IMG/VR virus record: IMGVR_UViG_3300001528_000580
Coordinates: 32,001 to 96,000 of that record
Reading direction: 5' to 3' (one strand)
Source: a virus
Lineage: Duplodnaviria > Caudoviricetes
DNA length: 64,000 nt
The notes beneath the pieces were generated by a model, which was given only the letters and a program-made list of their open reading frames with translations, was not told where the DNA came from and made no database searches. The translations under genes and the position numbers were made by a program. This document shows, piece by piece, positions 27,185-52,238 of this stretch. How positions within the stretch are numbered: the stretch's first letter is position 1; each line of letters starts with the position of its first letter.

Positions 27185-27278
27185 CTTATTCAATATTATT
27201 ATCGATAATAATATCTATATATATTGTCTTTATTTATAACAAAAAATAAGGGGTAATTATATCCCTTATTTGTGTATT

Positions 27279-27904
27279 TTAAACTTCAATGATGTTTTCT
27301 TGACTTATAATAAACCTTGCTTTTGTTGATGTGCTATAACAATCACCGCTTTTTGTAATTACATTAGTATGTAAATATTTTCCTCTACTGTCACCAATAT
27401 AATTAAATATATCCTTTATTTCTTTAATGTCTTCTAAAGGGATAATAATGCTTGGAGACATATTTGTCATGCTATCATCAAATGTGATATTTTTCAAATT
27501 TTGGTAAACTTGTTTGATAACAAGAAATTTCATAGTTATTCTCCGATTTTATTTTGTTGTTGTATATATTTAGGGTTTAACCTGTTTTGTGTTATTTCCC
27601 ATACTCTAAATAACAGGATTTCATTGTTATCATCATCAGTATAGTATATATTTAATGCTTTATTTACAAAGCCATTGGCAACACTGGATACAGACACAGG
27701 TTTATTGCTTCTAATGCCTTTTATATAAGCATTGTCAGGTATGCCTACTTGTTCTAACGCACCAAGTAATATTTTTCTATTAGAAAATACTCCTAATAGC
27801 TCACCTTTGTTGTTTTGCTTTGAAGCAACATATACCCTTCTTGCATCAGGAGCACCAACAAGAAGTTCAAAAACTTCATTTTTGATAATTTCGTTTTCTT
27901 TCAT
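27279..27904 (-). CDS. two hypothetical proteins (27536-27904, 27279-27533)
   Basis: Minus-strand ORFs with AAGGAG/GGAG RBS. Confidence 0.6.
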
Positions 27905-28152
27905 TCTAATACTCCTTTTCTAAATATACTATACATCAATAATTGAAAAATACAAGGGTTATTATATTATATTTTTGGTATTTTATATGGATGATAAAAA
28001 TTATAATTATATTATTATCGATAATAATATAAAAACATATTTGCGTATAGATAAAAAATGAAAAAAGTTTTATTTTAACTTGAAAAATCATTATTTTGGT
28101 GTATAGTATATATAGTAACAAGGAAAACCACACTTAATAAAGGGAATGAAGC

Positions 28153-28515
28153 ATGAAAAATTCGATGGTTAAAATCAATGGTATTTCGGTTCGCAACAAT
28201 AACGCTATTCGCCGTAATCATGGAGTGAGGATTGATAGAACTATTGAAATGCCCGGAGTAGTACGGGTTATTTGTGGTACTTGTGAAGAAGGTGATTTGC
28301 CGATGTTGGCAGCTTGTGCCAGAGAAGAAAATAAACGTGCTGGAATGAATATGGCGGTAGGTTTCTTTAGAAGTAATCGTCCCTTGTCGGATGAAGAAGC
28401 AGCTCTTTGGGCAATGCAACATGGACATGCAGGGTTGATTCAGAAACGTTTTCTTGGCAATCGTGAAAACGTGCGGACAATTGAAAATCGGAATATGTGT
28501 TTTATTGAAGAATAA
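28153..28515 (+). CDS. hypothetical protein (array unit)
   Basis: Own promoter (28080), AAAGGGA RBS and terminator. Confidence 0.65.
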   Translation: MKNSMVKINGISVRNNNAIRRNHGVRIDRTIEMPGVVRVICGTCEEGDLPMLAACAREENKRAGMNMAVGFFRSNRPLSDEEAALWAMQHGHAGLIQKRFLGNRENVRTIENRNMCFIEE

Positions 28516-28758
28516 ACAATATGATAAATAGAGTAGCATAAAAACCTACTCTATTTTTTTATATTTTTCTTTAGTCTTAATCTTATTATAATTATCGATA
28601 ATAATATAATCTTATTTTTATTTATTTGATACATATTATATTTGAAAAATTGTATTGATAAAAAGTCGAATAATTTTTTAAAATTAGCTTGCAAAATTAG
28701 AAAATAGTGGTATAGTATATATTAAAGGAAAGAGAACTCAAAACAAGGAGGATATAAA

Positions 28759-29184
28759 ATGTTAAACAGGTTTTTGAGGGGATTAAATTGGGCGATGATT
28801 CCGTGCGGTATTGTCGGAATTATTTCAATTGGATTTTTGCTTCTTCTTGGAATTGGCTTCCTTGTGGTTGTGCATGGATTATTGTTCTCTTCAATGTTGG
28901 AAGGAAACACCAATATTTATTGTTTAATGATTGTTTTGGTATTTGATCCGACTATTTTACTTTTTTTATGGGGATGCTTTGGTAAAAAAGCATTATGGGT
29001 GTTTCCAATTATTTTACTTGTAATTGGTATTCTTAACATTAAAATTTTAATTGGAGCTTTAGGAGCTTTGGCATTTTTATACATTATAATTGCAGGAATT
29101 GCCGGAGCGGTTAATAATGGCAACAAACGTAATATTTTGGACAATACCAATATGGTTGATGCGCCTCGTCATAAAAGACGTTAA
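28759..29184 (+). CDS. multi-pass membrane protein (array unit)
   Basis: Four hydrophobic segments; AGGAGG RBS. Confidence 0.7.
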   Translation: MLNRFLRGLNWAMIPCGIVGIISIGFLLLLGIGFLVVVHGLLFSSMLEGNTNIYCLMIVLVFDPTILLFLWGCFGKKALWVFPIILLVIGILNIKILIGALGALAFLYIIIAGIAGAVNNGNKRNILDNTNMVDAPRHKRR

Positions 29185-29426
29185 TTATAAAACATTGAGT
29201 TGGTAAAATTTACCAACTCTTTTTTTGCTTGAAAGTTATATTAATATTTAAATATAATTATCGATAATAATATACATGTTGTAGTTGTATATATGGATAT
29301 ATTTAAATGAATAAAAAAATAATCTGATTTTTTTGAATCTTGACTTGTATTTTTCTAAATGTGGTGTATAGTAAACAATGTAACAGGGAAAGCAACAACT
29401 ACAATAAAGAATGAAAGGTTAAGAGA

Positions 29427-29981
29427 ATGGATAACAAGAAGTTTGAAATGCTTATCAATTTGATTGATGAACTTGATGACTTTGAAATTACCAGTATTGA
29501 AAATTTGCAGAAGGCACGTGAAAGAGAAAAACTCTATGATGATATGCGCCGGAAAATGGTTAACAAACTTTTTGATTTTGAGTATAAAGAATGTGAATGC
29601 AAAGTTCATTTTAGCGTTAGTAAATCCTATCAAATGATTCATGCTGTGTTGAAACTGTTGAAAAACAATAATGAACAAATTACTTTAACAGAATTGTCCA
29701 AAATTTGTAAATGCAGTCTTTCGGATATTTACAACTTCTTTAATTTCAGTAAATATAATTGCAGTAATTTTGAAAATCATATTATTGCACCACCTTTTGC
29801 TAAACATAAAAAAGAAGAAAAATGTAGGAATATGGAACATGTTTTGAATATAGCTAAACAGTATAAAGGAGGAATTACACTTTCAGCGTTAACAGAAAAA
29901 AGCGGTTTGAGCTATGCAACTGTATCAAAATTTGCAAGGGAAAATAAGGAGATTGCAGAACACATTAAATACTTGAATTAA
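29427..29981 (+). CDS. HTH DNA-binding protein, paralog of 50920-51339
   Basis: ITLTELSKICKCS and ITLSALTEKSGLSYATVSKF HTH-like segments. Confidence 0.6.
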   Translation: MDNKKFEMLINLIDELDDFEITSIENLQKAREREKLYDDMRRKMVNKLFDFEYKECECKVHFSVSKSYQMIHAVLKLLKNNNEQITLTELSKICKCSLSDIYNFFNFSKYNCSNFENHIIAPPFAKHKKEEKCRNMEHVLNIAKQYKGGITLSALTEKSGLSYATVSKFARENKEIAEHIKYLN

Positions 29982-30046
29982 ATCTTGATTCATTTAAACA
30001 ACACAAAAAAAACAACTACACAAAACGATAGAAGGGACTTAGAAAA

Positions 30047-32754
30047 ATGGGTGTTGTGAATAGTTTTGCTTCCAAGTTCAAGACGATTAACAAGCACAAT
30101 GTGGAAAACATCGTTAAAATTGCGGAGTTGTATAAAAACTCCGGTGCAACCGTGAAAGAATGGCATGAAGAATTTCCCTGTTACAATACAAGGTGGTGGA
30201 ATATCATTCGCCTTGTTTCCCAAAACAAGGTTGACGCAAGGTTGGCTTTGTACCGTGCGCCGAGTGTTCAGTTCATTATGAAAATGCCGTTGAAAAAGCA
30301 AAAAGCGATTCTTGACAATCCTTTCATTGAAGTTTACAATCCTCAAACTGGAGATTTTGAAAAAGCAAGTATCTTCCGGCTGAACCGTGTTCTTTGCAAG
30401 GTTGCATTGAATATTGAATATGATTTTGATGAAGATGATTCTGATGAACGTGTAAATGTTTACTATGATGAAGCGGAACAGAAAAGCCGTTATAATAGCT
30501 TGAAAGAATCCGAAAAAGAAATTTTTCTTTCTGAACTTCATGAATATAACATTTCGCAAGGTTATGATAACGAAGGCAATTTGCAGTTTGAAAAAGAAGG
30601 CGTTATTATCACGGTTCCTGAAGTGAAGGCAATGAATAATTATATTCATCATTATAACAGGTTTGGCGAATAATCAAATATAGGCAAGGGAAAATTCCCC
30701 CTTGCCTTTTTATTTTTATATTATGCTGTTATAATTATATATTATTATCGATAATAATATATGATAATATTAGCGTTATTATCACTTTTTAGTATGACAA
30801 ATTTTTTTGTTATTTTTTCTATTTTATACTTGTAAAATCATTATTTTGGTGTATAATACTATATAGAAAAGGGAGTTCTAAGAATGATGAAGAAGATTAC
30901 AAAAAAGGCTGTAAATGACTTCGTTAAAAACGAATTGAGAACTAATGATAAATGGGCTGTTCGAGCTTTGATTCGTATTTATGAATTTCAAACTTCTGAT
31001 GAAAAGAATACCAATACGACCAATGAATCTAATAATGTTGGTTTTACTGGCTTTGATGCAGAATTGCTTTCCAGTTTTGCGAAACAGTATATTGCTTGTA
31101 AGCATTTGAGCATTCGGCAAATGGATATTGTTAAAGAACGGATTCCCAAATACTGGCGGCAAATTATTAATATTGCTGGTGGTCATGATAAATTCCATAG
31201 ATTTATGGTTGGTGGTGATTTGTTTAACAAATAAGAATGGTGATAAAATATGTTTGAACTTGTTGAAACTATTGATTATCGTGGTTGTATTATTACTATT
31301 GAACGTGATAATATTGAAAATTATGGTTATTCGGAACGTACTAAGAAAAATAATCCGTATGTATATAGTTATTCCTATAAGACAGATAACTATAATGCTT
31401 CTGATGGGCGTGTTTTTGTAAAGAAAGAAACTGCAATTGTCAATGCCAAATATGATATTGATAATTACCTTGAAAAAGAAGAAGAACCTACTTCTGGAAA
31501 GTATTATTTTGATATTGAGCATAAAAGCACTGGTGGTTTTATGTCGGTTGATTATTGTGAAGGAATTATTAAAATTGGAACTGATGAAGTTTTGAAAGTT
31601 CCTATGAAATATCATAGTGCTTGTAAAAATGTTTGTGAATTTATTGTGGATAAGTTAAATAAACTTAAATATATTGAAAACATATGTCAAAATAACGTTG
31701 AAGTATTATCAGATGATATTTTGAAAGTTTTGAAACAATAAAGGATATGAAATATGGATTGTCCGAAGTGCGGTAAAAAGTTGGGTGTTGCTCCTATGTC
31801 AATGTGCCTTAACAAACAGGATAACGAAAAAAAGCTGTTTTGCTGGGGTTGCATGAAATTGCATTACAAAAGTGATTTGCAATCAAAGAAATTACACGAA
31901 CAGGGATATTTCAAAAAACATTAAATAGCACAAAATTACTATAAATAGTGTCAAGTGTTACTATAGTATTAAAAACACTTTTTGAATAGCACAAAATTAC
32001 TATTGTGCTATTTTTTATTTATGTGAAACCATTGATATATTTAATATTATTATCGATAATAATATATAAATCTAGTTATAAAAAAGTTGTGTTTTTTATA
32101 CTTATATGACTTGAAAAAATATATTTTAGGTGTATAGTAATAATGGTTAAAGGGAAAATAAGTATAGGAAACTTTCATTATGAAAATTGTTGAATGGTAT
32201 ATTTATTCTACTATCAATAACGAGCAAATTGGTGAAACATACGAGTGTGAAAGTATGTGCGAAGATGAAGTAATGGACAAACTTATTTCTGATTATGGTT
32301 ATCCACGTGAAATCTATATTAAGAAGAATGATTCTTGGGAGGAATAAAAATGAATAAAGTTTTCAACTTGGTTCATGTTAACTTGAAGGTCGAATTTATT
32401 ACTGATGAATCCGGCGGTATTGTTAAGAAGAATTGGGAAATTCATAACTATAATGTTATTATTGAAAATACCAATAATACCAAACGGTATACTGCTGGTG
32501 GTTATAAAGGTAATGAACGTTATCTGGTTGCTGGTTATGGTGCTTATAGCATTAAGGCAGAAAATGTTAATAAAGTTTTTTCTTCCGTTGCCGGAAACAT
32601 GGTTTATGTTTCTGTTGATATTATTGAAAATAAAGGCAAAAGAGTTAATCATTTTGAGCTTAAAAAGAAACTTGAGCAAGAAGCATTGAATAAACTCCTT
32701 GAACGTCATCAATATTACCTTGACTTTGCTAGCTTCTTCAGAAACGCAGAATAA
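30047..32754 (+). CDS. hypothetical array proteins (30047-30673, 30884-31234, 31250-31741, 31754-31924 small CxxC/CxxC protein, 32335-32754)
   Basis: ORFs with RBS between promoters and terminators; 31754 reads MDCPKCGKK...FCWGC. Confidence 0.6.
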
Positions 32755-33863
32755 AATATTATTACAGAAAGTTGAAATATACTTTCTGTTTTTGTTTTTA
32801 TTTTTATGCCGAATAGATAAATATTATTATCGATAATAATATCTATTTACTTATATTAACGGAGAATAATCAGGAGAGACAAATAAAAAATTGAAATTTC
32901 TTCGTTTTATAACTTGAAAAAAATATTAATTGTGATATAGTATATTACAACTAAATGAAAGGGATAACAATGAAATTTCTTCGGAAAATTACTTATAATT
33001 TCAAAAATGCAGTTATTGCTATTTTTATGATTCTTATTACTTTTTTGTTTGTGTATGTGAAATACTGGTGGACAAAAGAAGCACTTTCCGATATTGCAGG
33101 AAGAGAAGTAAAAACAACAACGGTTCTTTGGTCAATATTTAAGGAGAATTGAAAATGAAGAAAGAAGCAATTGTTGATTTTAACAAATTGTCTAAATGGG
33201 GATTGATTGTTGAAATTAACAAAAAAGTTCTTCATCCGCTCGGTTTAGCTTTGAGCTATAATGACAATGGAAAATCAAAGGGAGCGATTATTTCCGATGA
33301 TTATATATGGGAATATGGCAAAGATACAGTGAAAAAACATAAAAAGTTGAAAAAGAAATTTGCCAAAAACAGAAAGAAAATTTTAGGTTCACTTTTGAAG
33401 AAAAAGAAAAAGTAAATCAAATATTAAGCAAGTTGAAATATACTTGTTTTTTTATTTTTATCATATCATTGTTTAACTAATATATTGTTATCGATAATAA
33501 TATTTCTCTTCATAATAAAAAATGTATTTTTTATATTTTTGCTCTTGACTTTTTACAAAATGAGATTATATTAATAAGTAGAAATAAAAGTTATGTCCAT
33601 GATAAAATAAAGGTTTTTTATATGGATAAAGAAACTATGAAAAAAGTAAATGAACTTTTGTTATCTGCTCCGAAACCTACAATTAAAGAACTTGCCGAAC
33701 TTGTTATTTGGGCAGGTTATAAACTTCCTTCGCCTAAAATTAAAGAAGGTCAGTTTGATTTTAAGAAAAAAAAGAGAAATAGAAAGATTATCGCTTGAAT
33801 TTCTTTGTTTTTGTGCTATATTATAATTAGTAACAGAAAAACAACCACTAAAGGAGTTTAATC

Positions 33864-34082
33864 ATGGAAGACCTCAAATTTCAATATATGATGCTTGGAC
33901 GGCTTAAAAGCGATTGTGATTATTTCTTGGGATTTGGTGGAAGAAGTGAACGCCGCCTTTGGGCAGGTAATGTAAAAGACCAGATCAAAGAAATGAAAGA
34001 ACGGTGGAACAGGTTGGAAGTAAAACCGGAATGGTTGACTATGGAACAAATAGAAGAATATGAAAGACAGATGACAGCGTGA
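33864..34082 (+). CDS. LPD11-like (large polyvalent protein-associated domain 11) protein
   Basis: FQYMMLGRLKSDCDYFLG...LWAG...QI.EM...W...KPEWLTMEQIEEYE pattern. Confidence 0.75.
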   Translation: MEDLKFQYMMLGRLKSDCDYFLGFGGRSERRLWAGNVKDQIKEMKERWNRLEVKPEWLTMEQIEEYERQMTA

Positions 34083-34289
34083 TTATATAAGGCAGTTGAA
34101 ATATACTGCCTTTTTCTTTTTATTATTCTTAGATAATATAATATATTATTATCGATAACAATAGATATTGTTGCAATTCTTCATTGAAAAATAATTAAAA
34201 ATTTTTGTTGTATCTCCTTGAAATTTTTATGTTTTATTGTATATTATAAACAGTTACCAGTAAAACAACCAATAAATACAGGAATTGAA

Positions 34290-34817: not shown

Positions 34818-35008
34818 GTTCAAAAATAGTAGGTAATTTACATTACCTACTATTTATATTTATTGTTATAGGTTGAATTAATATATTATTATCAATAATA
34901 ATATATATTCACAATAAATAAAAACATAATTTTTTCAAATTCAGACTTGTATTTTTATGTTTATGTGGTATAGTATAATAAAGGCAAAAACCACACAATA
35001 TAAAGGGA

Positions 35009-36730
35009 ATGAATATGTTGTTGACTTACGAACAGCTTCCGCAGGAAACGAAAAATTTTATTGATGGTGTTGTTAATGCTATCAAAAAATATTTTCCCTA
35101 TTCCGATGTAGGTTATAAATTTTGGGCAGGTTTGGGAGAACCGAGTGTTCAATTTTATATTTACCTTTCAAAAGATGCTTCTGAATGTGCTAGCCGTATT
35201 CGGCGTAATGATGCGTTGAGAACTTACTTTGAAGTATACCTTAATAGTGATGGTTCTCTCAATGGGGATAAAACAGTAATACAACTTATTACTGGTGGTT
35301 TCTGTATGCGTATTGCAGACAAAAATATTCCGAAGGAAAAGTTTTGTGTATATGGTAGTGTAAAACTTCCATTCCGCAAAATTACAGGAACTCCTGAAAA
35401 AATTATTGCAGGTATGGAAAAATGGGCGTTGAAAACTGCAACAATCTTGCTTGAAAATGCTGAAGCTATCAATGCCGGAACGATTAAGGGACTTTTCACT
35501 GTTCAAGATAAAGTAGTTATTTAATGAGGTTTTCAAATGGACAAGATTAAAGAACTTGAAAAAATCCTCGAAGAACTGAAAAAGTCAGACGGTTTAACTA
35601 TCATTTCTTATCATATCGGAAGTAAAGGAGAATATAAAACTGTTCAAGAAAATATTAAATTTGATGTTTTTGAAAGGAATGTCAATTTTAAGAAAGTTTC
35701 TTTATTTGACAGTTTGGATATTCATAATAAAATAATTGAACTTATCCAAAATGAAATCCAAAATTTGAAATAATATTTATAAAGGAATGTTATAAAATAC
35801 ATTCCTTTTTTCTTTGTATTTATATAAGCAATTAATTTATATTATTATGGATAATAATATATAAGCATTCATAATTTTTGTTTATTTTTTTGGAAATATG
35901 ATTTGATTTTTTTATTTTTTGTGATATAGTATAATAAAGGGAAAATAAAAATAAGAGGTATTAAAATGAATAAATCTGAAATTGAAAGAATCCTGAAAAG
36001 AGTTTGTGCTGATTATGAACTGGATTTTTCGGCAGATGACCAGTATTTTGATATTTATGTAACAAATTATAATGCCGATTCTTATGGCATTAACCATGTT
36101 GATACGCAGGTTTTTAATAAGCGTGGTTATGAACGCTTTGAAAGAGTGATGGATAACCTTCAGGTAAGATGTTCAAGTTATAATTTTGATGTTCTTTATG
36201 ACGTAAGCGGTTATGAATACTGGACAAAAGATATGCAGGAATCAAATTATATTTGCATTTCTATACTTATTCATAATTATGATGCAGATTTTTCCAAATT
36301 TGAGGAAGATTTGGATAAATTTATTTCCAATGTACAAGAAAAATATCGTGAAATCCTTTCGCATGACAGCTATATCCGTAAGGGATATGAAAGCTGTATT
36401 TGAAAAAATCGATAATTTTTCAATTTCATAACTTGTATTTTTTAGAAATGGTGATATAGTATAGTAAACAACCACAACAGGAGATACGAAATGAAAATTG
36501 AAGACATTGGACTTTACAAGCATGTAACAGGATTGATTGTCGCTGCAAATAAAAAAGTAGAGGTTCACGGCGATTATAAAGAAATTGCACGGTGGTTTCC
36601 TAATGAGGGAATCCAATGGAACATGAAACGCATTCCTGCCGATTGCAGAGCGCATATTGAATCGGTTTATAAAGCCGATTGCAAAGAAGCAAAAGAAAAA
36701 CAAGAGAAAAATAAATCGGATTCACAGTAA
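35009..36730 (+). CDS. hypothetical array proteins (35009-35524, 35537-35773, 35966-36403, 36491-36730)
   Basis: ORFs with own promoters/RBS. Confidence 0.6.
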
Positions 36731-36957
36731 TCAGAAAAATAAATCAAATTCAAGGTGGATTTTTCCACCTTATTTTTTTGTTTCATTATGTCAAAAAAAT
36801 ATATATTATTATGGATAATAATATATTATGATGTTTGTCATTGATAAAAAAATTCTAAAAAATATTGAAAAGGTACTTGAAAAATCATTGTAATGGTGTA
36901 TAGTATATTAAAGGCAGAAAGAAAAGCCTAAACGCAAAAATAAGGAAGGATCTGAAA

Positions 36958-37263: not shown

Positions 37264-37791
37264 ATGCTGTTAAGGAATATAAATTCAGGGGATAAGTTTA
37301 TTATTGATAGTAGGGGAAAACAAGTTGTAATAACTATTATCAATAAAACACCTGATGGAAAATATACAGTTGAAACACAATGTGGAAAAGTTCACATTCT
37401 TTCAAGAGAAACAATAAGCACTTTTTCAAGATATAAAGAGTTTAAAGAAAAGAAGCAAACACTCTTGGATTTAGCTGTTTTAGTTCTGATAGAAGAAAAC
37501 AAACCAATGAAAGTGAGCGAAATTCTTCGATGTATTAAAGAAAAAGGGTACAAGGTTCCAAGAAATGGTGACACTTTAGAATGTTCTCTGTCGTCAAGGT
37601 TAACAACAAATGCAAAAGAATGTATTGTTGGAAGAATTAGAGTTAAAAAGTTGGCGAATGGTATTTTTGTTCATAAAGATTGGCAAGGAATATTTAATGC
37701 GCCTTTAACTCAATTTGAATTGAGAGAACAATCAAAAGAGAATAGAAAAAGGTTGATTGAGCATGAAATAAGTAGCATTGTAGGAGAATAA
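37264..37791 (+). CDS. SH3-like + HARE-HTH (winged helix) protein
   Basis: TLLDLAVLVLIEENKPMKVSEI...GDTLECSLSSRL...GIF. Confidence 0.65.
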   Translation: MLLRNINSGDKFIIDSRGKQVVITIINKTPDGKYTVETQCGKVHILSRETISTFSRYKEFKEKKQTLLDLAVLVLIEENKPMKVSEILRCIKEKGYKVPRNGDTLECSLSSRLTTNAKECIVGRIRVKKLANGIFVHKDWQGIFNAPLTQFELREQSKENRKRLIEHEISSIVGE

Positions 37792-37794
37792 AAA

Positions 37795-38843
37795 ATGGCA
37801 AAAATGACATTTGCACCTTTTTCTGGTATTAATGCCGACGGTTTTAAAATAAAAGTTGGTGATAAAGAGGAAACATATTATTATGGAGTTAACGCTTCAT
37901 ATAATAGAGTTTTTGCAACTGCTGAAGAACCTTATGTTTCTGATATATTGCAAAAAACAATTAATGAAAACAAAATTTCAATCAATGAATTTGAAGTTGT
38001 TGATAGTTGGAATGTTTATAAAAATGTTTATCATAAAGGAGTTGAAAATAAAAAGTCAATATGTAAATATATCCAAGAATTGCAATTTGTGAAAAAATAA
38101 AATATTTGAGGAATGGTGGAAAACCCATTCCTTTTTTTGTCTGTTAATAGTAGTTGATCATTTATATATTATTATCGATAATTATATTATCTAGTTTTTA
38201 TAACATAAAAATATTCAATTTTTTTTATGATAACGTATTGATTTTTTCTAAATATGTGTTATAGTATATATAAGAAAACCAAAACACAAAATTAAATTTG
38301 GAGCTAAAAATGAATAAACTTACCGCTCTTGTTAAAGTGATTTACAATGATAAGGACTGTGTTATTCTTTCTACGAAAAGAAAAGACAAAATGGCTCTGA
38401 TTTGTACTGGCTGTTTTAATGGTGATGAAAATACGATTCGACTGACAAAAGAGAAAGAACCGACATATACTATTTTTAATGGTAGTTCACATTATTCAAT
38501 GAGTGAAAATATGCTCGTTTCTCAGCAGGATAGAAACAAGATGAGACTTATCAAAGAAACAGTTGTAGAGGATTTTGGAATTGCTCTTTATGGAAATGAT
38601 GTTGCAAAAACTTGTGGCGATGCAAGTGTAGAAAAAGCAAGAAGTGGAAAGCATGTCATTCGTCTTTGTTGGTTTCATGAAAATGACATTGCCATTCATC
38701 GTGATAGCACTTATATTAAACATGTGAAAGGCATAGAAGAAGCAAGAAAATGGGTGTTCAATCACTTTAATAATGTTATTGCAGAAACTCCCATTATGAA
38801 AACTGAAAACAATAGTTATAAGATTGATTTTGCAACCAATTGA
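37795..38843 (+). CDS. two hypothetical array proteins (37795-38100, 38298-38843)
   Basis: ORF track; RBS present. Confidence 0.55.
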
Positions 38844-38951
38844 GAATTTTAAGGCAAGCTAAAAACTTGCCTTTTTTATTTTTGTTTTTCTGTTAATATT
38901 ATACATATTATTATCGATAATTATATATAACAATTATTCCAGAATAAAGAC

Positions 38952-39130
38952 AAAAAAATTGGTGTAACACGGTAAAGCAAATGAAAGGGAAAAGAATTAC
39001 TTTACCTAGCAGACAACCACGAACTGCTGTTACACCAATAAAAAACCAGAGGAGTGGTTTTTTAGCGCCCCGACCGCATCGATTTTTAAACAACAATATA
39101 CAGAAAGGAGAAGTCATTTTTTCTGTTACT
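38952..39130 (-). ncRNA. putative structured small RNA, antisense to the array direction
   Basis: Minus-strand promoter TTGACT(39164-39159)-16-TATATT(39142-39137); four hairpins; terminal 11-bp stem followed by poly-T. Confidence 0.6.
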
Positions 39131-39893
39131 AATTATAATATAGCACGAAAAAAATGAAAGTCAAGTATTTTTTAAAAAATATTTTTATTTTTTTTGTATC
39201 TATTGGACTTGATTTTTCATTTTTTGGTGTTATACTAATAATAGAGAAACAACCATATTGAAGGGGAATAAGAAAAATGGGAAGCAATAATACTATTGAA
39301 AGCAAAATAGAGCACCTTGCAAGCGATTTAAGGCAGGTCTTTTTGTCCATGAAAGTAATACATGGAAAAGAAGTTGAACGACCTTGTAAATCAATGCAGG
39401 GACAAAATAATCGAATATGCCAAAACGATTAAAGGCACTGATGAATTTAAATTCATTGATAACCTTATGTTTGAAATGTTTATTGAATATTCCAAAATGT
39501 AAAGAATTTTTTGCTATTACTACTTGAAATTTCATTTTTTTGTGATATAGTAATAATAGAAAATAAAGGAAAGCATATGAAAACAATTCTGCTGATTCCA
39601 AGTATGGTAATAATTAATACTACTGCTATTGCAGTTATGCCAAAGTTGTTTTCTTATTTTGGTTATAATAATTGGCAAGCAGGACTTTTTTGTGTTGGGC
39701 TTATTGCTGTTATTATTGGAATGGTTTTCTTGATGGTAATGCACGATGACAGAAAGGGAAGAATATGAAAATTATTCAAAGAAAAGCGTATTGTGCTTTC
39801 TGTGGCAAAAAAGTTTTGCTCCCTTTGGAACGGTGGAAAATCCTTAAACAAGGTGGTATGTTTGTTTGCAAACGTTGCAGTTAAGGAGTAATT

Positions 39894-40416: not shown

Positions 40417-41162
40417 TGCAACTATCATTCTTTTTTTATCATGTTTTGCGAAAATAAAAGATATATCATTATCGATAATAATATAATATGGTATCTTCAG
40501 CTATCATAAAAAAATGAAAAAATTATTGTTTTTGTGCTTGAAATTTCAAAGAATTGATGTATGTTATATATTGTAAACAGGAAAGGAAATACAAGCAATA
40601 TGGATTATGAAATGATTTTTTTGTTGGTCGGTGTAGCGGTAATTATCGGCATTAAAATCTATGTTGCTTATCAGAAAACCAAACCTGAAAAAAGTTCAAA
40701 AAAAGTTCACAAGAATACTTGAAAAACTCAAAAACTGGTGTATGTTATAGTAAAGCAAAAGAACAGAGAACTTGAAAAAGAGCAAATAAAAAAATTCAAA
40801 AAAAGTTCAAAGTTGAGCTTGAAAAAAACACAAAACAGAGTATATTAAGTAATGTAAACGATAGCTCATAAGAGCAAATGATAAATCGAAAAAATCGGAA
40901 TGGCGATAAGGAAAGGATGGTTATAAAATGAAGTAACGTTAAAATAACAACCAACCTCTTGACATGATAAATAAAATTAAACGTTAACGCCGCAACAATA
41001 TGGTGAATAAAATGAAGTAACGAAGAAATAAACTTAACTTTTTGAATATATCGCTGTGTTAGCTAAAACATTAACGCCGAAGTCGGCATTAAAAGCGGGT
41101 AAGCGGAATGAATAAGATTCGAGATCGAACTTAACAAGTTATAAACTTGAATATTTGCTTAA

Positions 41163-41495: not shown

Positions 41496-41892
41496 TTTTC
41501 TCAAAATTAGGTTGTAGAGAAGAACCTAAAAAATATAACAAAAACTGCTCTTGTTAAAATCATTTGAGATTTCGATTGGCAAGATACAAAGCATTGGAGC
41601 AAAAAAACCATGCACTTTATTAGAGCCATGCCGTAAAATAATTTCTTCATTTGTAATTTTCGATTATGTAATCCTTTTGAATAGCCTGTTATGAAAATAG
41701 CAGGTTATTTTTTTGTTTTATCATTTTCTTTTCTATTTATTATCTATAATTATCGATAATAATATATTTCAATATTTGGTTGTAGATAAAAAAATGAAAA
41801 AAAGTTTTATTTTAACTTGTAATTTTCAAATAATGATGTATAGTATATTTAGAGAACAGAGAAAACCACACTTAATATAAAGGGAATAAAAC

Positions 41893-44821
41893 ATGTTGGC
41901 TTTTGAAAAAACTCTTATGACCGTTTATTTCTCGAATGAAAACAAAGAATTAGCACCCCTTTTTATTGATGGCAAAATTGAACAGCAAAGGGACGGTTCT
42001 TTTTATGTCATTGTGAACGGTGAGCTTGTTGCCAAGTATGGCAATTATAACGATGCTGTGCAATTCGTCAAAGAAAACTATAAATAAAGGTTTGACATGC
42101 TTTATCTTGAAAAAGTAAATGTTCAATATGGTGCTCCAATGGGGCGTAGAGAATGGAATGAATGTCCCGGAATAAAAGTCTGTGGCAGTATTCAAGAAAT
42201 AGCCATGAGAGAAGGCTATGATTCAGGCGGCGCATATTGGGGAACTCCTAATAATGTATATTGCGCACAATACAATCATTTTGATAAGAATACAAATAAA
42301 GAGTATTCCGGCAGAGTGTTTGTACGTGCCTTTTCTCGTGAAAGTGCAATAGAGCAGGTGAATAAGATTAGCGGTTGGGAAAATGTAAAATTCCGCAAAA
42401 AATAAATCAAATTTATACACCTTAAAAAAATGAATTTGATTCAAAGAGGGAAAGAGAAATTCCCTCCTTTATTTTTTTATTTATTTGGATTCTAAACAAT
42501 ATTATTATCGATAATGATAATAAAAATAAATCGAATTTATTTTAGAATCAGACTTGAAAATGAAACGAAATAGTGTATAGTATATATAAACGGAGAACAA
42601 TTATATGCTTATTGCTTTATACATCATTGCATCATTAGCAATCATTTATTTATTGATTGCAGTATTGTTTTATGTGATTGCATGTAAAATCATGTGTCCC
42701 AAAAGCAAATGGCAATATATCGATTTAATGGTATTGGCTATTAACTGGTTTCCTGTATCACTTGTATTTATGTTTTTCACAGATTAAATTTCAAATTTTT
42801 TCATTTTATCACTTGACTTTTTGCGAGTTGAATATATATTAATAACATAGCAAGATAAAACCTTTCAACCACAACATAAAGGGAAAAATCATGGAAATCA
42901 AAACTCGTTACGAAATTCAGGATGACGAAAAGAACCTGAATAACATTGAACGGCAGAAAGAACAAACCAAAGAAGCTGGTCGGCAAGTTGCCGAATTGAT
43001 TATGCAGTTTATCAACGGTGGTTTTACTGCTGACTTCTTTGAAGGTTTCTTTGACATTATTCTGAATAGCCATCGAACATTGCAACAGGTATTTCAGAAA
43101 TACCTTATTCTTAAATGGATAAGAATGCAAGCACTCAAAACCGAAGGTTTTTTCGATGAGCGTAACAAGTATACGGTCGAACAATGTAAAATCATGGATA
43201 AAGCATTGCGTGACAATGAAAAACACTATAATCCACCGTTCATTTAATCGAAATATTAAAGGCTGATTGATTCAGCCTTTTTTGTTGTTTTAATATTATT
43301 GATATATTATCTATAATTATCGATAATAATATTTGAATTAATTTCATGTAATAAAAAAGTTTGAGTTAATTTCATTTTGTAGCTTGCAATTATATGTTTT
43401 TGGTGTATAGTAATATTAGAAACAAAAAAGCAATAGCTGTTACCACAATATAAAGGGATTAAATTATGAGCCAATACACCCGTCTTGCATGTTCTGACGA
43501 GCAGGAAAGAGCTATTGCAACTATTGAAAAATGGTTGAAGAAGCTGAATAAAAATATTTGTGGTTCTACCAAAATTGGCAAGTATTACGATACTGTGATT
43601 TTGGATTTGGAATTTCATGGGAACAACATTTATGTTCATTCAAATGGATTTGAAGATACTGACTTTGGTAATGAAGGAGTAACAGTAAATAATGTCCATA
43701 TTGAAAATGAAGGACAGTTTGAAAAGTTCAAGGATGCTGTTATGAAAGATGAATAATGAGCAGAACGTTTCGCAAAAGTGATATTTTCGAGTTTACGGAA
43801 GAAAGGCACAATAGGAGTGCCAAAGTTGACAAAAAACACTTGAGAATGAAAGTCCCTGATGGGAAGGTTCAAAGTCCTGTGTTTGATGCCTTTACAAATG
43901 ATGGTGATGGTTTTCTTGGTTATGGCGAAGAATTTTGTCACAAGAAGTTGTATAAGAAACTTCGTAACAAGAAAAAACGTCATCAAAAAGTTGATGAAGA
44001 ATAAAAAATATGATGCAGTAATTTAATTACTGCATTTTTTGTTTTTATATATTTGAAGATAATTTATGTATTATTATCGATAATAATATAGTTGTTGTTT
44101 TTATCAACAGAAAAAAGTAACATATTTTTTATTTTTCGACTTGAAAATATGATAATATGGTGTATAGTAATAAATAGAAAGAAGAAAGAGAGTTATGGAT
44201 AATATAATTGTTGTAGAAAAAATACTTGTTGTTTTATTTATAATTGCATTAGTTATATACGCTCATGTAGGATTATTCATTAGAACTAAATAAAAAAAGG
44301 GAAAGAAAAAATGAAAATTATTATTCCGATTGTCATGTTTGTGTTTGTGTTTTTCGCTTTTATTGCCATTGCTCAATGGCTGTGGAGCATCTTTTGTCCT
44401 GTATTTGGTTTGCAGGAAATGACTTTTTGGCAGATGACAGCTTTCCTTGTGTTTGTCTCTGCTTTCCTTGCGCCTTGTTGGGTTAAACGGTGAAATATTC
44501 CTGATAGTAAAATAGTTGAACAACCGAAAAGTAAAGGGTAACACAATGGAAACCAAGAAACCGACAAGGGAAGAAGTTAAGAAAAAAACTTTGTCCGAAG
44601 AATTTGCAAATTTTTTCGGAAACCTTTACTTTCGATGGCTCGATGAGAAAGATTATGAGGACATCGAAGAATACAAAAAAGTCATTGAAAGAGAACTCGG
44701 TTACTCAATTAAGAGAATCAAAAAACGTCCTTTCAGTATCGAAATTGAAACAAGTGACAATTTCCTTATGACACTCAAAGCCAATTCCAGTGGTATTGAG
44801 TTGTTTCGACAGGCAATCTAA
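41893..44821 (+). CDS. small array proteins (41893-42087, 42097-42405, 42605-42787 TM, 42891-43247, 43466-43756, 43756-44004, 44311-44493 TM, 44546-44821)
   Basis: Each in a promoter/RBS/terminator unit; 42097 has YGAPMGR...GYDSGGAYWG. Confidence 0.6.
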
Positions 44822-45018
44822 TATCAATTTATGGTGGTGAAATATCCACCATTTTTGTTTTGCTAATTGAGTAACATTATTTTATATTATTATCGATAAT
44901 AATAAATTTATATATTCATTGCTAGATAAAATTTTGAATTTTTATTTTATTTTAACTTGACTTTTTCAAAAACTATGATATGTTATAAGTAGTAAAACAA
45001 CCATAGGGAGTATTAGAA

Positions 45019-45582: not shown

Positions 45583-45721
45583 ACAATATAATGGAGCTAT
45601 ACAAATGGCTCCATTATTCTTTTTAGAATATTGTTGTTTTTAGATATACTATTATCGATAATAATATATAAATGATTATTTTGATGTGATAAAAAAATTC
45701 TGATTTTTTTTGAAACGTTAC

Positions 45722-46051: not shown

Positions 46052-46116
46052 AATAAAAGAAAAGAGAACTGAATGGTTCGGTTCTCAAAAACCTGAAATC
46101 ATGAAGGAGGTAAATC

Positions 46117-46638
46117 ATGATTCGTAAATTTGAAGTTGGAATGAAGCTGGAAATTCAGAACGGCGCTCAGCGGGTCAATGTCATCGTGACCGATGTTCCG
46201 GAAGATGCCAATGAAAAGCTGACGGTGGCATTCGAGAAGTCCGGCAAGGAACGCAAGATTTCTCGTGAAGCGCTGAAAACAGCCACTCGTGTGAAAGAAG
46301 TCAAGGAAAAGCGTCCGTCCGTGGTTTCGACGGCGATTCAGATTCTCGTGGACAAGAACGTCCCGATGACAATCAAGCAGATTACCGAGTGTCTGCCCGA
46401 ATATGGGTACACTCAGCCTCGTGAGGGAAAGACCCTTGCGAACAGTGTTTCGAGCCGGATGAACGGTGCCGCCAAAGAAGGCAAGTGCAAGAAGCTGGCG
46501 AACGGCGTATTCGCCGCAAACGAATGCACCGTGGAGTATGTGAAGCCCTTGACTGCCGCTTCCAAGAAGGCTCTTGAAGCCGAAGCCAAGAAAGAGGCGG
46601 TTGCGAAGGAACTGGCGGAGGCTCTTGCCGAAGCCTAA
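46117..46638 (+). CDS. SH3-like + HARE-HTH protein, highly codon-adapted
   Basis: SVVSTAIQILVDKNVPMTIKQI...GKTLANSVSSRM...GVF; GC-rich codons; AAGGAGGT RBS. Confidence 0.7.
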   Translation: MIRKFEVGMKLEIQNGAQRVNVIVTDVPEDANEKLTVAFEKSGKERKISREALKTATRVKEVKEKRPSVVSTAIQILVDKNVPMTIKQITECLPEYGYTQPREGKTLANSVSSRMNGAAKEGKCKKLANGVFAANECTVEYVKPLTAASKKALEAEAKKEAVAKELAEALAEA

Positions 46639-46863
46639 GAGGTGACAATGGGGGAGAAATCCCCCTTGTTCTAAAAAAATTAAACACTATCAGAAAAAAA
46701 CTGATAGTGTTTTTTATTACATATTTTTTTGAAACTATTGTTTATTATTATCGATAATAATATAATTGTGTGTTACTTATGCAGATAAAAAATTCAATTT
46801 TTCTTTTGTTTTAACTTGTAATTTTCTAAATGTGGTGTATAGTATATTAAAAGGAAGAAAAAT

Positions 46864-49438
46864 ATGAAACTTATAATTAAAGATTCTGCAAACTCGTTTA
46901 TAATCAGTGATTCAATGCACTATCATAAGGTATTGCAGGAACGTGAAAGATTAGGTTTTCGTAATGTTGGAATTGATAAAGTTCCAACTCATGATGAAAT
47001 AAAAAATCTTCCTATATTTGCAGGTGGAAAGTTTGTTTATAAAACAGAACCTAAAGTTATATGGGAAGTCGAAGAAATAACAATAGAATGGTTGGATGGA
47101 TATTATTTTAATGCTTTCTGTTCAAATGGGAAAGAATATAGGTGTATACCATTCTATAACCGTAATTGCATCAATCCCCATATTATAAGGGATATTGACA
47201 ATTTCAAAAACAAAACAACCATAAGGAATAGGAAGAATGAAAAAAGCGATTTATAATCGGCAGGGAAATCAGATTGTTGAAACTGGTCATAAAACTTTTG
47301 ACCGTCAAACAAATGCTATTTCACATGGCAATGTTATAGCCAATACCATGTTCGGCTCATATATTCGCTCTTATACTGAAACTGAGTGTAATGGTTTTGA
47401 TTTTCCTGTTGGACATTTGTTTAATGTTGATATGAAGCCATTTATTGAACGGATGGGATTACGCAATCAGCGTATTATTGAATATATCAAAGAAGAAACA
47501 GAAGCACGGCAAAAGTCCGTTATTCTGTATTGCTTTTTCCATTGGAGAAATGGGGAACGTATCGTTCATGGATACATTTTGACTGACTGGGATTATAATC
47601 ATATTCAAACATTTTATGGAGAAAGATATAGCAGTAAATCCATTTCAGTTCTTGAAGAATGCAAACAGTATGTTTGTAATTGAAACTGATTCAAAATTCA
47701 GGAGTATAAAAAGCTCCTGTTTTTTATTTTAATTTTGAATCCGATTTATTATCTATTGTTATCGATAATAATATATCTTAATTTATTAAAGCAAAAATAA
47801 TTATGATATATTAATAAAATTGATTGATTTTTCTATTAACGATTGTATATTAGCTATAACCAAATAGGAGAATAAAAATGAATAGAAATGAATCAAATTC
47901 AAAAAACATTGATTCCATTGAAGAACATACTCGGAAAACAGAAAGAAAGATTATTATAATATGGAGTATTACATTAATTATAATAATATTATCAATTATA
48001 AATGTGTTCTATCCATTTATTTCTGATTATATTGATTCATATTTTATAAATGGAAATGGAGAAATAGATTATAATAAAAAAACGTATAGCCTTGTTTCGT
48101 TTATGATATGGTATGTTCCATTTTGTTTCATGATTTTCAAAAAATAAATAATAATATTTTTTCTATATAATAACTTGCATTTCATTAAAATTGGTGTATA
48201 GTATATATACAATCAATATGGAAGGGAGTTAAAAATGGCAAATGTTTGTGAAACAATTATCATTGCTGAATTTGATTCAGAGAAAGCAAAAAATGAATTA
48301 TTTTTGAAACTCCAAAACACCATAAAGAAAAATGATGACGGAATAGATTATTTCACTCTTGGAAGTGAAAAGTGTTTTTTGTTTGATGGAGCTATTGAAG
48401 ATACTGAACAGTCACCAAAGAAATTGGAAATGGTTTTTTCTTCAAAGTGGACAGGTTGTGAATCCATTGAAGTATTCAAAGAAATTATCGAATATTTGAA
48501 AGTAGATGGATTGAAAAAATTTGCTTTATATGATTATGAACCTTTAGAAAATTTCAAATACCATTATACCTATCATAATGGAAAATTTTATGAAGGAAAA
48601 GGAAATGCTCATGCAGGGAAATATATGGGAATTGAATAAAAATTAAAAAATAGATTTGACTTTTCATAATATGCTCTTATATTATATGTAATATATAATA
48701 TAGGAGTATAATGTTATATGAATAAAATTGTTTATATTATAGGTGGAATTGTTGGATTTATTATTGGATATAGTGCTGTAATGTTATTACTAACATTTTT
48801 AGCACAATGGTTATGGAGTATCTTTTGCGTTTGTATAAATTGCAGTCCCATGTCCTATTGGCAAATGTTTAGTTTTATTATCTTCTTATCAATGTTTATT
48901 GTACCTCGTTATGTAAATACAGGAAAATAACGTTTTTTTCTATATAACAACTTGCATTTTATAAAAACTAGTGTATAGTATATGTAGAAACAAAAAACAA
49001 AATAAGAGGTCAAAATTATGTGCGCTGGTGCTTGCAAATGTAAAGAACGTAAAGAAATTGCAAAGAAAGCTGCAAATGCAAAACTTGACGAAGCAAGGGA
49101 GCTTGCAAGGCAGTTGATGGACGAGGGAAATGAAGGTGTTACAAAACTCGACAAAATCATGACTTTGATTGATACAGCCAAAAATCATATTCACAACATT
49201 TAACCAAAATAATAAGGTAAAAATTATGGCGAAGATTGTTGTTGTAGTTCATGGTGGATTGGTGGAAAGTGTTTACACTGATGACGGAAACGCCGAAGTA
49301 AAGTTGATTGATTACGATATTCTCAAGGATGACATGGGAAAATCGTATCAGGAAATTACTGAAATTACCAAAAAAAATGTTGGCGACCTGAAAAATAATC
49401 CTATCGGATATGTTTCCGATATTGAGGAAGTTGAATAA
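46864..49438 (+). CDS. small array proteins (46864-47256, 47237-47683, 47878-48147 TM, 48235-48639, 48718-48930 TM, 49018-49203, 49226-49438)
   Basis: ORFs with promoters/RBS; 48718 is a paralog of 44311 (AQWLWSIFC...M..WQM). Confidence 0.55.
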
Positions 49439-49698
49439 AAATTAGAATATAACAACCTACAATGCGATTACCCATAGAGATATGCGGTATGTGGAACAGA
49501 GTAGGTTGTTTTTTTATATATTTAATGTCGAATATTCATATATTATTATCGATAATAATATACATTATTTTGTTTGTTAAAATGTTACCATCAAAAAATA
49601 TTATATTTTTTCATAAATCAACTTGAAAAATTGCGTTAAAGGTGTATAGTATATATAGAATGAAAGAGAAACACCAAAACAACCACAAGGTGAATATA

Positions 49699-50433
49699 AT
49701 GGAGATTAGCAATCTGACGATTGAACTTACTCGTAAATGCAACATGAAATGCAAACATTGCTTGCGTGGTACTCCTCAATGTGTTTCTTTGAGAAGAGAA
49801 GCATTGAAAAATATTTTCAAAAATGTTGAATATATTGGAGCATTACAATTTACAGGCGGTGAGCCGTTGCTTGCATTGTATCAAATGCGGCAAATTGTCG
49901 ATTACTTGAAATGGGCTAATATTGAAATTGGCTATTTTTGGATTAAAACCAATGGAACTATCTTTTCAAAAGCATTCTTGAAATATTTGCAGGAATTGCA
50001 GAATATTACAAATGAACCTGACATGTGTTGTATGGAATTTTCGCTTGATCAATATCATAATAGCAAATATAAAAATGTTATTTATGAATATCAAAATTAT
50101 GAATATGAATACACTTTCATTAAAGCAAGTGACAATTTGCATAGTAAATACAATAAAATTTATACTATTATTAAAGAAGGTAGAGCTAAACGGTTAAGGA
50201 AATACGAGGTTTACAATTTTGATAAACCGAGCTTTTATGATGGTTGGAATGCTGATGATTATGATACCGATAATATGATATATGTTTCAGCAAATGGTAA
50301 TGTAATGACAGATTGCAATTTGTCATTCAATAGCATTGACAAGTATTCTTTCGGAAATATTTACAAAGAAACACTTGAAAGTATTGTTGACAGGAACACC
50401 AAAGAAGAAATTAAAAAAATTTATGCAAAATGA
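49699..50433 (+). CDS. radical SAM protein
   Basis: TRKCNMKCKHC (CX3CX2C), FTGGEP, TNGT, SLD, twitch/SPASM-like C-terminus. Confidence 0.85.
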   Translation: MEISNLTIELTRKCNMKCKHCLRGTPQCVSLRREALKNIFKNVEYIGALQFTGGEPLLALYQMRQIVDYLKWANIEIGYFWIKTNGTIFSKAFLKYLQELQNITNEPDMCCMEFSLDQYHNSKYKNVIYEYQNYEYEYTFIKASDNLHSKYNKIYTIIKEGRAKRLRKYEVYNFDKPSFYDGWNADDYDTDNMIYVSANGNVMTDCNLSFNSIDKYSFGNIYKETLESIVDRNTKEEIKKIYAK

Positions 50434-50919
50434 CAAATAACAACTTGAAATTCTCGCTTTTTGTGTTATATTAACAATAACAACCAAAGGGAGGTTTGAG
50501 AATGGGAATGATTAAAGTCCGTGCATCAAAAATTAAATGGAATGTCGATGACAAATCAGAACTTGAATATTTGCCAACTGAATGTATTCTTGAAGTTGAA
50601 ATCGATGAACTGGATGAAGTCATCAGTGACAAATTAAGTGAAGAATATGGCTTCTGCCATGAGGGATTTGAATATGAGATTATAAAATAAACACAACACA
50701 AGAGAGTAACTATATAGTTACTCTCTTTTTTATTTTGTTGTTTGATAAAAACTATTATATTATTATCGATAATAATATAAATACTATTGTTATATATGTA
50801 TAACAAATAAAAAATATACTATTTTTTTTAGTTTTTACTTGAATTTTTCTAAATATGGTGTATAGTAAACACATAGCAAAAAATAACCTAAAACCACAAC
50901 TATAAGAAAAGGTGAAAAA

Positions 50920-51339
50920 ATGAATAATCAAGTATTGGAAGTCCTTTCTCTGATTGAAAACAAAAAATCGGATATTATTACATGTATTGATGAACTGAAA
51001 AGTTTTGAAATTATTAGCATTGAAACCTTACAAAAAGCACATGATAGAAGAAAATATTATAAAACATTAAAGTATTTTGGCGTTTTGAATTATTTGATGT
51101 ATCAAAAATTTTTTGACTTTTGGCACAAAAAATGTGACAAATGTAATATTGAACATAGTTTTAATAAACGTTATCAAATGATTCATGCTGTATTAAGTTT
51201 GTTAAAAAAAGAAAATAAAAAAATGACCTTTAAGGAATTGTCGGAAATTTGTGAATGTCAAATTATAGATATTAAAAATTTTCTTGACAGTCAATATAAT
51301 TGTGGAAAGTTTGAAAACAATATTATTGATGGAAAATAA
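50920..51339 (+). CDS. HTH protein, paralog of 29427-29981
   Basis: Shared YQMIHAVLxLLK...ELSxICxC...YNCxxFENxII. Confidence 0.65.
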   Translation: MNNQVLEVLSLIENKKSDIITCIDELKSFEIISIETLQKAHDRRKYYKTLKYFGVLNYLMYQKFFDFWHKKCDKCNIEHSFNKRYQMIHAVLSLLKKENKKMTFKELSEICECQIIDIKNFLDSQYNCGKFENNIIDGK

Positions 51340-51588
51340 GAATAGTAAAAATGCAAGGAATTTATCTTTGCATTTTTGTTTTAACATTTTATGATTATAA
51401 ATTAATATTATTATCGATAATAATATAATATGATATAATCACTTTCCAAAAATGATTGTGATACTAAACAAAAAAATATTGACTTTTTTCATTTTAACAC
51501 TTGAAAAATCATTGTTTGGATGTATATTTATATTAGAAAAGAGAAACAAGGGGTTTCTCTAAAACGACAAACCATAGTGGAGGTAATT

Positions 51589-52053
51589 ATGGAAAAGTCA
51601 CAAGTCAGAGTCGGTTGGAAGTATCGCAAAGTTTGTGGTGCTGTCGCATCGGAAATTTCAATCGTTGAAAAACTGGAAGACGGAACTTTTACCTGCTCTT
51701 ACAAGAGCGGAAAAACGTTCAAGGCAAGCCGTGAAACGATTTGCTCATGGGAACGCATCGTCAAGGCAAAGCCGGAACACAAGAAGCGCATCAATCAGCC
51801 TGTTTTGGTTGACGCTTGCAAAACGGCGTTGAACGCTGAAAAGCGTTGGTTGACACCTACGGAGCTTGTCAAGCAGTTGGTCGAAAAGGGGCTTTACAAA
51901 TTCACGGAGAAAGCCAAAACGCCCCATTGCACTGTCAGCAGTCGGTTGAATACTTATTTGCGTGAAGGCGGCAAAGGTATTCAGAAGTTCGGGCGTGGAC
52001 ATTTCGCCGCCGAAGGTGTTGAACCTCCGGTTGCAACTCCTGCCGAAGCATAA
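51589..52053 (+). CDS. SH3-like + HARE-HTH protein
   Basis: LVDACKTALNAEKRWLTPTELVKQLVEKGLY...AKTPHCTVSSRL...GRGHF; GGAGGT RBS before ATG 51589. Confidence 0.75.
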   Translation: MEKSQVRVGWKYRKVCGAVASEISIVEKLEDGTFTCSYKSGKTFKASRETICSWERIVKAKPEHKKRINQPVLVDACKTALNAEKRWLTPTELVKQLVEKGLYKFTEKAKTPHCTVSSRLNTYLREGGKGIQKFGRGHFAAEGVEPPVATPAEA

Positions 52054-52238
52054 GGAATAAAAGCAAGGGGAAAATTCCCCTTGCTTTTTTGTTTCCAACT
52101 TTTACCATCATAATCTTATATTATTATCGATAATAATATATTTTTGATCGATGGTCTTTTTTTGTCTACAGATCTCGTACTATAGATCTGCGGACATCTT
52201 TTTATATCATTATCGATAATAATATATTAATGTTTGAT

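Follow-up and report, generated by a model that had tools for sequence, protein, structure and literature searches.

A 22-bp palindrome tied to terminators recurs through a 25-kb block of small genes in an uncultured giant phage

The IMG/VR record IMGVR_UViG_3300001528_000580 is a Caudoviricetes genome of 440,868 bp, rated complete and with a GC content of about 25%, of which bases 32001-96000 were analysed here (64,000 nucleotides (nt); this whole stretch is called the window, and positions refer to it unless given as genome positions). Between 27193 and 52225 the window holds a block of 25 kb with about 50 small genes, almost all on the plus strand, through which a 22-bp perfect palindrome, ATATTATTATCGATAATAATAT, recurs at the boundaries of units of one to four genes. 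The GC content of the block is 28-34%, compared to 21-24% in its flanks. Giant phages carry big blocks of small genes without annotated function, which are thought to serve host takeover; how such blocks are switched and how their rapid evolution comes about is, to our knowledge, largely unknown. Since the promoters are of the type TTGAAA-N17-TGgTGTATAGTAT and the Shine-Dalgarno sequences are strong, the host would be of the low-GC Gram-positive type.

The palindrome was searched for with up to three mismatches in the window and up to two in the whole genome. The window contains 29 copies where 0.02 would be expected by chance, and 100 shuffles all gave fewer. Of these copies, 28 lie in 27193-52225 and one at 61269, with zero in 1-27 kb, which reproduces exactly the array and the single outlying copy of the original prediction. 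The whole genome has 33 copies, those outside the window being at genome positions 99290, 117289, 138202 and 145808. The copies in the window are the following.

27193..27214, palindrome, left boundary, 29 nt after the terminator of the minus-strand unit 27279-27904
28009..28030, palindrome between divergent promoters, without an adjacent terminator
28586..28607, palindrome with 2 mismatches
29252..29273, palindrome heading the unit that carries the double helix-turn-helix gene
30739..30760, palindrome
32044..32065, palindrome, left partner of a 2.8-kb four-unit indel relative to a related phage
32821..32842, palindrome
33482..33503, palindrome
34143..34164, palindrome
34883..34904, palindrome with centre CA, right partner of the four-unit indel
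35839..35860, palindrome with centre GG, also GG in the relative
36803..36824, palindrome with centre GG, CC at this site in the relative
38166..38187, palindrome
38905..38926, palindrome after a terminator, with no consensus promoter downstream
40463..40484, palindrome
41744..41765, palindrome
42499..42520, palindrome
43311..43332, palindrome
44068..44089, palindrome
44884..44905, palindrome
45646..45667, palindrome
46742..46763, palindrome
47753..47774, palindrome, left edge of a cassette replaced in the relative
49540..49561, palindrome, right edge of the cassette replaced in the relative
50757..50778, palindrome heading a one-unit insertion (the unit of a helix-turn-helix paralog) that is absent from the relative
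51405..51426, palindrome
52118..52139, palindrome, right boundary, after the final plus-strand terminator
52204..52225, palindrome, second right-boundary copy, starting 86 bp after the first
61269..61290, palindrome, outlier, 29 nt after the terminator of the minus-strand genes 61404-63754

A CAGATCT/AGATCTG hairpin stands between the two right-boundary copies (52118 and 52204). To their right, the gene-free stretch 52226-52480 carries about eight copies of GRTAAAGAT(W), 20-30 bp apart; these iteron-like repeats may mark an origin or a second array of protein sites.

Most of the 51 block proteins that were scanned have no Pfam or PHROG family of known function. Families or domains could be assigned to a radical-SAM protein, a SprT-like protein, and proteins with an LPD11 and a DUF7415 domain. 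Three paralogs with a HARE-HTH domain (PF05066), encoded at 37264-37791, 46117-46638 and 51589-52053, are conserved in all relatives; we take this domain family to be that of the delta subunit of RNA polymerase, and the paralogs may be modifiers of the host RNA polymerase. That paralogs are scattered through the array had been proposed from the sequence alone and was borne out for the groups starting at 29427/50920, 37264/46117/51589 and 44311/48718. The first of these groups contains a possible DNA-binding protein:

29427..29981, plus strand, protein of 184 amino acids (aa) with two helix-turn-helix (HTH) regions, inside the array

Its paralog at 50920-51339 is shorter and lacks the C-terminal HTH. 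The AlphaFold2 (AF2) model of the double-HTH protein has a pLDDT of 80; in the fold search nothing in the PDB matched at E<0.001, and the similarities were confined to local winged-helix ones.

The organisation of the units was derived from flank alignments and from promoter and terminator scans. Each unit has an intrinsic terminator, a T-rich spacer of about 30 nt, the palindrome, a second spacer, a promoter, a 5' untranslated region (5'UTR) with a Shine-Dalgarno sequence and one to four genes, so that the proposed order of terminator, palindrome, A/T tract, promoter and small genes is upheld. The spacer following the palindrome (about 50 bp) frequently has GATAAAAAAT some 20 nt on, resembling the distal part of an UP element. 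One terminator serves as an example:

30682..30707, plus strand, intrinsic terminator, stem end 32 nt before the palindrome at 30739

The tightest positional constraint of the unit is the spacing between terminator and palindrome. Over five related arrays, which were the basis for all comparisons of junctions, breakpoints and inversions, the distance from the terminator stem to the start of the palindrome is 30.5 +/- 1.5 nt (range 27-34) in 78 non-identical junctions, and it also holds behind terminators of unrelated sequence. Within the array the palindrome stands behind 21 of the 22 strictly defined terminators, compared to 1 of 61 outside of it, which indicates that it marks a class of genes and not terminators in general. 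The copies without a promoter (27193, 38905, 52118, 61269 and genome 117289) nonetheless have a terminator upstream, whichever way the preceding genes run. Promoters of the same type that follow directly on coding sequence, with no terminator, have no palindrome; five of these are internal to the array, and a further 12 are minus-strand promoters at genome 95-145 kb. Copy 28009, located between divergent promoters, is the one clear exception in the window. About 350 bp after copy 38905 (38927-39276) have neither a consensus promoter nor an open reading frame (ORF), and an Rfam scan of the window gave tRNAs only, with nothing downstream of this copy.

A promoter of the sigmaA type, with its -10 element at 66-114 bp from the palindrome centre, accompanies 24 of the 29 copies in the window; 24 of the 28 array sites precede such a promoter of their own, and the units end in their own terminator. 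These promoters are near-consensus and have an extended -10. None of the copies overlaps a -35 or -10 element, in agreement with what had been claimed. The positions are as follows.

28102, 28711, 29367, 30852, 32133, 32936, 34240: first T of the -10 of unit promoters
34969, 35925, 36899, 38260, 40560, 41839, 42576: first T of the -10 of unit promoters
43406, 44163, 45744, 46838, 49645, 50861, 51523: first T of the -10 of unit promoters
27933 (minus strand, 86 bp from the centre) and 28102 (plus strand, 82 bp): -10 of the divergent promoters around copy 28009
downstream of copies 33482, 44884 and 47753: weaker promoters

In about half of the units 82-88 bp separate the centre of the palindrome from the -10, usually around 84, and the remaining ones have 66, 74-78, 93-94, 102-107 or 114 bp. 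Further downstream, several unit leaders (28120-28150, 34990-35012, 41865-41890 and others) have a 5'UTR motif in common, AACCACA..TAATAAAGGGAAT, with the Shine-Dalgarno sequence at its end.

Relatives were located in metagenome contigs through homologs of two array proteins. One contig of 32,068 bp spans the entire array of a related phage and has 33 copies of the same palindrome, and a third array variant was found on a 4-kb contig. A more distant clade, in which the HARE-HTH protein is 57% identical, has the same 22-mer in 23-24 copies per 20 kb. Contigs L148-L159 are 99.6-100% identical to the 32-kb relative and thus come from the same phage, and for this reason they were left out as independent evidence. 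Where identity between the two closest genomes drops to 70-75%, that of the palindrome is still 97%, compared to 38-62% in the 10-bp bins on either side of it, so that the site must be strongly constrained. Copy 36803 has GG where position 14969 of the relative's contig has CC, within DNA that is otherwise 95% identical, a core flip as would be expected from template switching or from recombination within the palindrome. The original prediction had offered a methylation-sensitive switch at the central ATCGAT as one of three explanations. This found no support: ATCGAT is present 79 times against 84 expected, 52 of them outside palindromes, and the centre variants GG and CA are retained, the GG at 35839 being common to the relative.

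Public phage collections yielded no close relative. No DNA match was found among GenBank phages, an IMG/VR search with the 18-mer core of the palindrome gave single chance matches only, and a metagenome scan with the 18-mer gave mostly single matches. Neither the radical-SAM protein nor the DNA polymerase, used as queries for related loci, gave a match. Two groups of apparent relatives were rejected: the 456-kb record G001, which has just 2 copies and no SprT homolog, and the multi-copy contigs L032 and L037, which are unrelated AT-rich DNA with tRNA genes. Among the genomes of 185,579 bacterial species, the exact 18-mer core has 119 single-copy matches, in unrelated genomes, and is never repeated within one genome, which speaks against a common host regulon.

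The order of units is largely kept between the arrays, with numerous gains, losses and replacements. Of 73 distinct rearrangement endpoints, 20 (27%) are located within 6 bp of a palindrome, compared to the 4.1% expected (nominal p ~1e-11, the endpoints not being fully independent). Another 10 are in the zone of the terminator and its spacer (-27 to -55). There is no endpoint at +7 to +60, and the 14 found at +61 to +165 are every one within +85 to +161, which covers the promoter, the 5'UTR and the ribosome-binding site. In the relative, the left flank of copy 32044 together with the palindrome (91% identity) is fused to the right flank of copy 34883 (97.5%, with the 60 bases beside the palindrome identical); four units are lost, and the switch is inside the palindrome. 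Contigs L283 and L284 differ by a unit of 418 bp, and the alignments on its two sides share 28 bp, namely the palindrome itself (L283 10595/11041, L284 10595). The homology of paralogous units likewise begins exactly at the palindrome, and no inversion of homologous units was found among the five arrays. Some gene insertions break exactly at the AACCACA..TAATAAAGGGAAT leader motif.

The palindrome is thus the main junction of unit turnover among related phages. Of the suggestion that the copies are recombination sites of an integron-like library, this much stands: units are gained, lost and replaced with a preference for breaks at the palindrome, as the comparison of related genomes had been meant to reveal. 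The same comparison places breakpoints at other conserved motifs, namely the promoter/5'UTR region and the terminator; moreover, the units have their own promoters, no inversions occur and a tyrosine recombinase is missing from the genome. The enrichment of breakpoints is real, and a dedicated recombinase is not needed for it, since the 22-28 bp common to all units are the longest homology available, since breakpoints are also found at other shared motifs, and since other repeated regulatory elements of phages, the stoperators and PeSLs discussed below, recombine too. To us, recombination at conserved regulatory homology, in the manner of those elements, appears a better fit to the rearrangement pattern than an integron-like enzyme.

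The symmetry of the site, its conservation, its restriction to one class of units and its lock to the terminator are the reasons for which we lean, with somewhat better than even confidence, towards the palindrome being a multi-copy site for a dimeric DNA-binding protein that acts on transcription at the boundaries of units and that also provides homology for recombination. That a protein binds there, which one it is and in which direction it would regulate, we infer from this pattern. The protein is probably encoded by the phage; the lack of multi-copy 18-mers in bacterial genomes would weakly favour this. The double-HTH protein (29427-29981) is a speculative candidate, and nothing links it to the palindrome. 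As to the original idea of a loading site for a phage protein, its general form is the one favoured here, and its parS/ParB version finds no canonical ParB in the genome.

According to the proposed mechanism, a symmetric dimeric protein would dock on the 22-bp palindrome at the boundaries of units driven by host-type promoters, which presumably makes these units early genes. A terminating RNA polymerase holds about 18-20 bp of downstream DNA, so a protein on the palindrome would be located just past the DNA held by a polymerase stopped at the terminator. There it could seal the unit from read-through, as a boundary or roadblock. Alternatively or additionally, it could set the next promoters jointly from around -96, for example for a shut-off of the whole block. 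The palindrome, being the longest sequence common to all units, would also be the preferred crossover for homology-driven gain, loss and replacement.

Several points weigh against this reading. The double-HTH candidate for the binder is a guess. Measured from its centre, the site stands about 96 bp ahead of the inferred start of transcription, which is far for a classical activator or repressor, and the near-consensus promoters of the array would need no activator. The edge of the palindrome is about 22 nt past the expected point of RNA release, and this spacing is loose for a pure roadblock; a roadblocked E. coli RNA polymerase stalls about 14 bp before the blocking protein. The strong enrichment of breakpoints at the palindrome equally fits a dedicated recombination function. 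Finally, the distance from centre to -10 has a periodicity of about 9.75 bp in the window (R 0.62, p ~2e-4), as helical phasing of the palindrome to the promoter would give, but the 14 units of the relative that are independent or diverged give p ~0.1, with a phase shift of about 3 bp (combined p 0.013). As it did not replicate significantly there, helical phasing is suggestive only.

An alternative is that the palindrome is the site of a host protein, such as a global regulator, a nucleoid protein or a Fur-like factor, which the phage would have borrowed for the timing or gating of its early genes or would titrate from the host. The promoters are of the host type, so a factor acting at time zero has to be already in the cell or in the virion, and a conserved host protein would explain why the 22-mer is unchanged across phages whose proteins are 57% identical. 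The arm hexamers GATAAT/ATTATC may be reminiscent of Fur-type boxes; the orientation of the half-sites is, however, unlike the 7-1-7 box of the Fur family. The 119 exact matches of the 18-mer core also speak against a host protein, as they are single copies in stretches of unrelated genomes and form no regulon-like set. We regard this explanation as unlikely.

A dedicated cassette exchange was weighed next, in which the palindrome would be the crossover of a site-specific or cruciform-cutting recombinase and the block a shufflable library of cassettes, each with its own promoter and terminator. The share of endpoints within 6 bp of the palindrome (20 of 73, against 4%) speaks for it, and so do the clean unit indels that leave one palindrome behind (as in the 28-bp overlap of L283/L284), the fusion of 32044 and 34883 exactly at the site, the start of paralogous homology at the palindrome and the palindromes on both sides of minus-strand units. 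The central 2-bp core with its 10-bp arms also resembles the sites of small serine recombinases. The enzymes looked for give a different picture. No match to the tyrosine recombinase family (PF00589) was found in the 440,868-bp genome, while the control matched in 14 of 14 genomes. The genome has one serine recombinase, of 190 aa, with a Resolvase domain at residues 55-172 and an N-terminal extension, located 29 kb to the right of the array in an IS607-like layout:

genome 112,979-114,909 (L160 4979-6909), serine recombinase and ORF, the recombinase gene overlapping the start of a 453-aa ORF without Pfam match

The statement of the original prediction that no recombinase is present in the window is wrong in the letter, as an insertion sequence (IS) of the IS200/IS605 type is located 7 kb to the left of the array:

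19504-19917, minus strand, TnpA of IS200/IS605 (Y1_Tnp, E 6e-36)
18383-19507, minus strand, TnpB of IS200/IS605 (OrfB_IS605 and Cas12f1-like TNB)

The element (18383-19917) is complete and lies within a run of plus-strand genes, and it accounts for a local flip of the GC skew. An origin of the palindrome from IS200/IS605 (REP/RAYT) was considered and rejected, the hairpins of the IS ends (e.g. CTCCATGCTAAAGCATTGGAG) being unlike the AT-rich 22-mer. Against a dedicated exchange there is also the lack of any inverted unit in the five arrays. The many breakpoints at +85 to +161 and at -27 to -55 are what homologous recombination at short shared sequences gives, and a recombination site needs no terminator at 30.5 +/- 1.5 nt. 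We therefore judge a recombinase-driven library decidedly unlikely, and give even less credence to its fullest form, in which the palindrome would be the crossover of a site- or cruciform-specific machinery, the block a phage counterpart of the integron, and the bound protein a transcriptional boundary as well.

It is highly unlikely that the palindrome has a role at the level of DNA without any in transcription, as a ParB/KorB-like loading site for the organisation or protection of this DNA, a signal for replication or packaging, or a decoy that would draw off a nuclease of host defence: its copies are clustered in one block, the double palindrome of the right boundary is followed by the iteron-like repeats and the genome encodes two small ParB_N-like proteins (171 and 189 aa), but these proteins have a C-terminal zinc ribbon and no HTH, their Pfam scores of 25.3 and 21.9 bits do not exceed the cut-off of 26.3, no canonical ParB (N-terminal domain and HTH) was found in the genome, the "terminal repeat" of the record is a 31-bp assembly overlap that gives no physical genome ends, and the tight lock to terminators together with the absence at promoters without terminators points to transcription.

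To return to a boundary site for a transcriptional regulator, several known systems offer a comparison. The stoperators of mycobacteriophages L5 and D29 (cluster A) are about two dozen sites in short intergenic regions that are bound by the repressor gp71, and expression falls when a site between a promoter and a gene is bound (PMC5712189, citing Brown et al. 1997). They are conserved between related phages, and recombination between them yields deletions (PMC5712189). Each is an asymmetric site of 13 bp that points in the direction of transcription; one of them overlaps the early promoter, and their role is in lysogenic immunity (PMC5712189). The array resembles them in having many intergenic copies of one site that are conserved in relatives and that recombine. 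It differs in that the site is a 22-bp perfect palindrome, is never on a promoter and stands about 30 nt behind intrinsic terminators.

The promoter-early stem-loop (PeSL) cassettes of the T4-type phages RB49 and phi1 consist of strong host-type early promoters and terminator stem-loops (PMC2839356). They occur as dense arrays in hyperplastic regions rich in small ORFans, where the cassettes mark the limits of the insertions, deletions and replacements by which sister phages differ, and the shuffled genes each bring their own promoter and terminator (PMC2839356). The array described here likewise repeats a strong host-type promoter and a terminator among small ORFans, with indels and replacements bounded by the cassettes. 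PeSLs have no separate palindrome as a protein site, and their stem-loop overlaps or abuts the promoter (PMC2839356), whereas here the terminator and the promoter have a third, strictly conserved element between them, which serves as the main point of crossover.

SPBRE of the Bacillus phage SPbeta is a 15-bp motif in about 10 promoter regions that is bound by the master repressor MrpR; it had been predicted in silico decades before ChAP-seq showed the binding of the repressor (PMC10516654). SPbeta is temperate, and MrpR has a tyrosine-recombinase fold (PMC10516654). Both cases concern a repeated motif near promoters of a large phage, that of SPBRE infecting Bacillota; the array differs by the lack of a PF00589 match, by three times as many sites and by the tie to terminators.

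The KorB operators (OB) of plasmid RK2 are a short palindrome repeated about a dozen times, some copies being 80-190 bp from promoters that are repressed at a distance. KorB/ParB systems depend on a ParB-family protein that has an HTH, and their OB sites show no link to terminators. The array differs from both KorB/OB and ParB/parS in that no ParB-family protein with an HTH was found and its sites are tied to terminators. With the integron (attC/IntI) the array has in common the gain and loss of units with junctions at the site, and it differs by the lack of a tyrosine recombinase and by cassettes that have their own promoters and terminators. The attC sites are imperfect inverted repeats, variable in length and sequence, in contrast to one fixed 22-bp perfect palindrome. 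Compared to the sites of serine invertases and resolvases, there is no cognate small serine recombinase and no inverted unit in the five arrays. A literature search for a terminator-locked palindrome array in jumbo phages found no description of one, and we class the array as a variation on the theme of multi-copy regulatory sites and regulatory cassettes in phages. The grammar of terminator, 30 nt, 22-bp palindrome and promoter is precise and testable, and a clade of uncultured gut megaphages has conserved it; being defined, the 22-mer makes a convenient bait for the regulator, and the fixed spacing a simple variable.

One further observation concerns short palindromes in the genome as a whole. 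AAGCTT, CCATGG and CGCG are absent (0 against 63, 42 and 45 expected, respectively), and GATC is halved (715 against 1209 expected), which suggests strong restriction avoidance.

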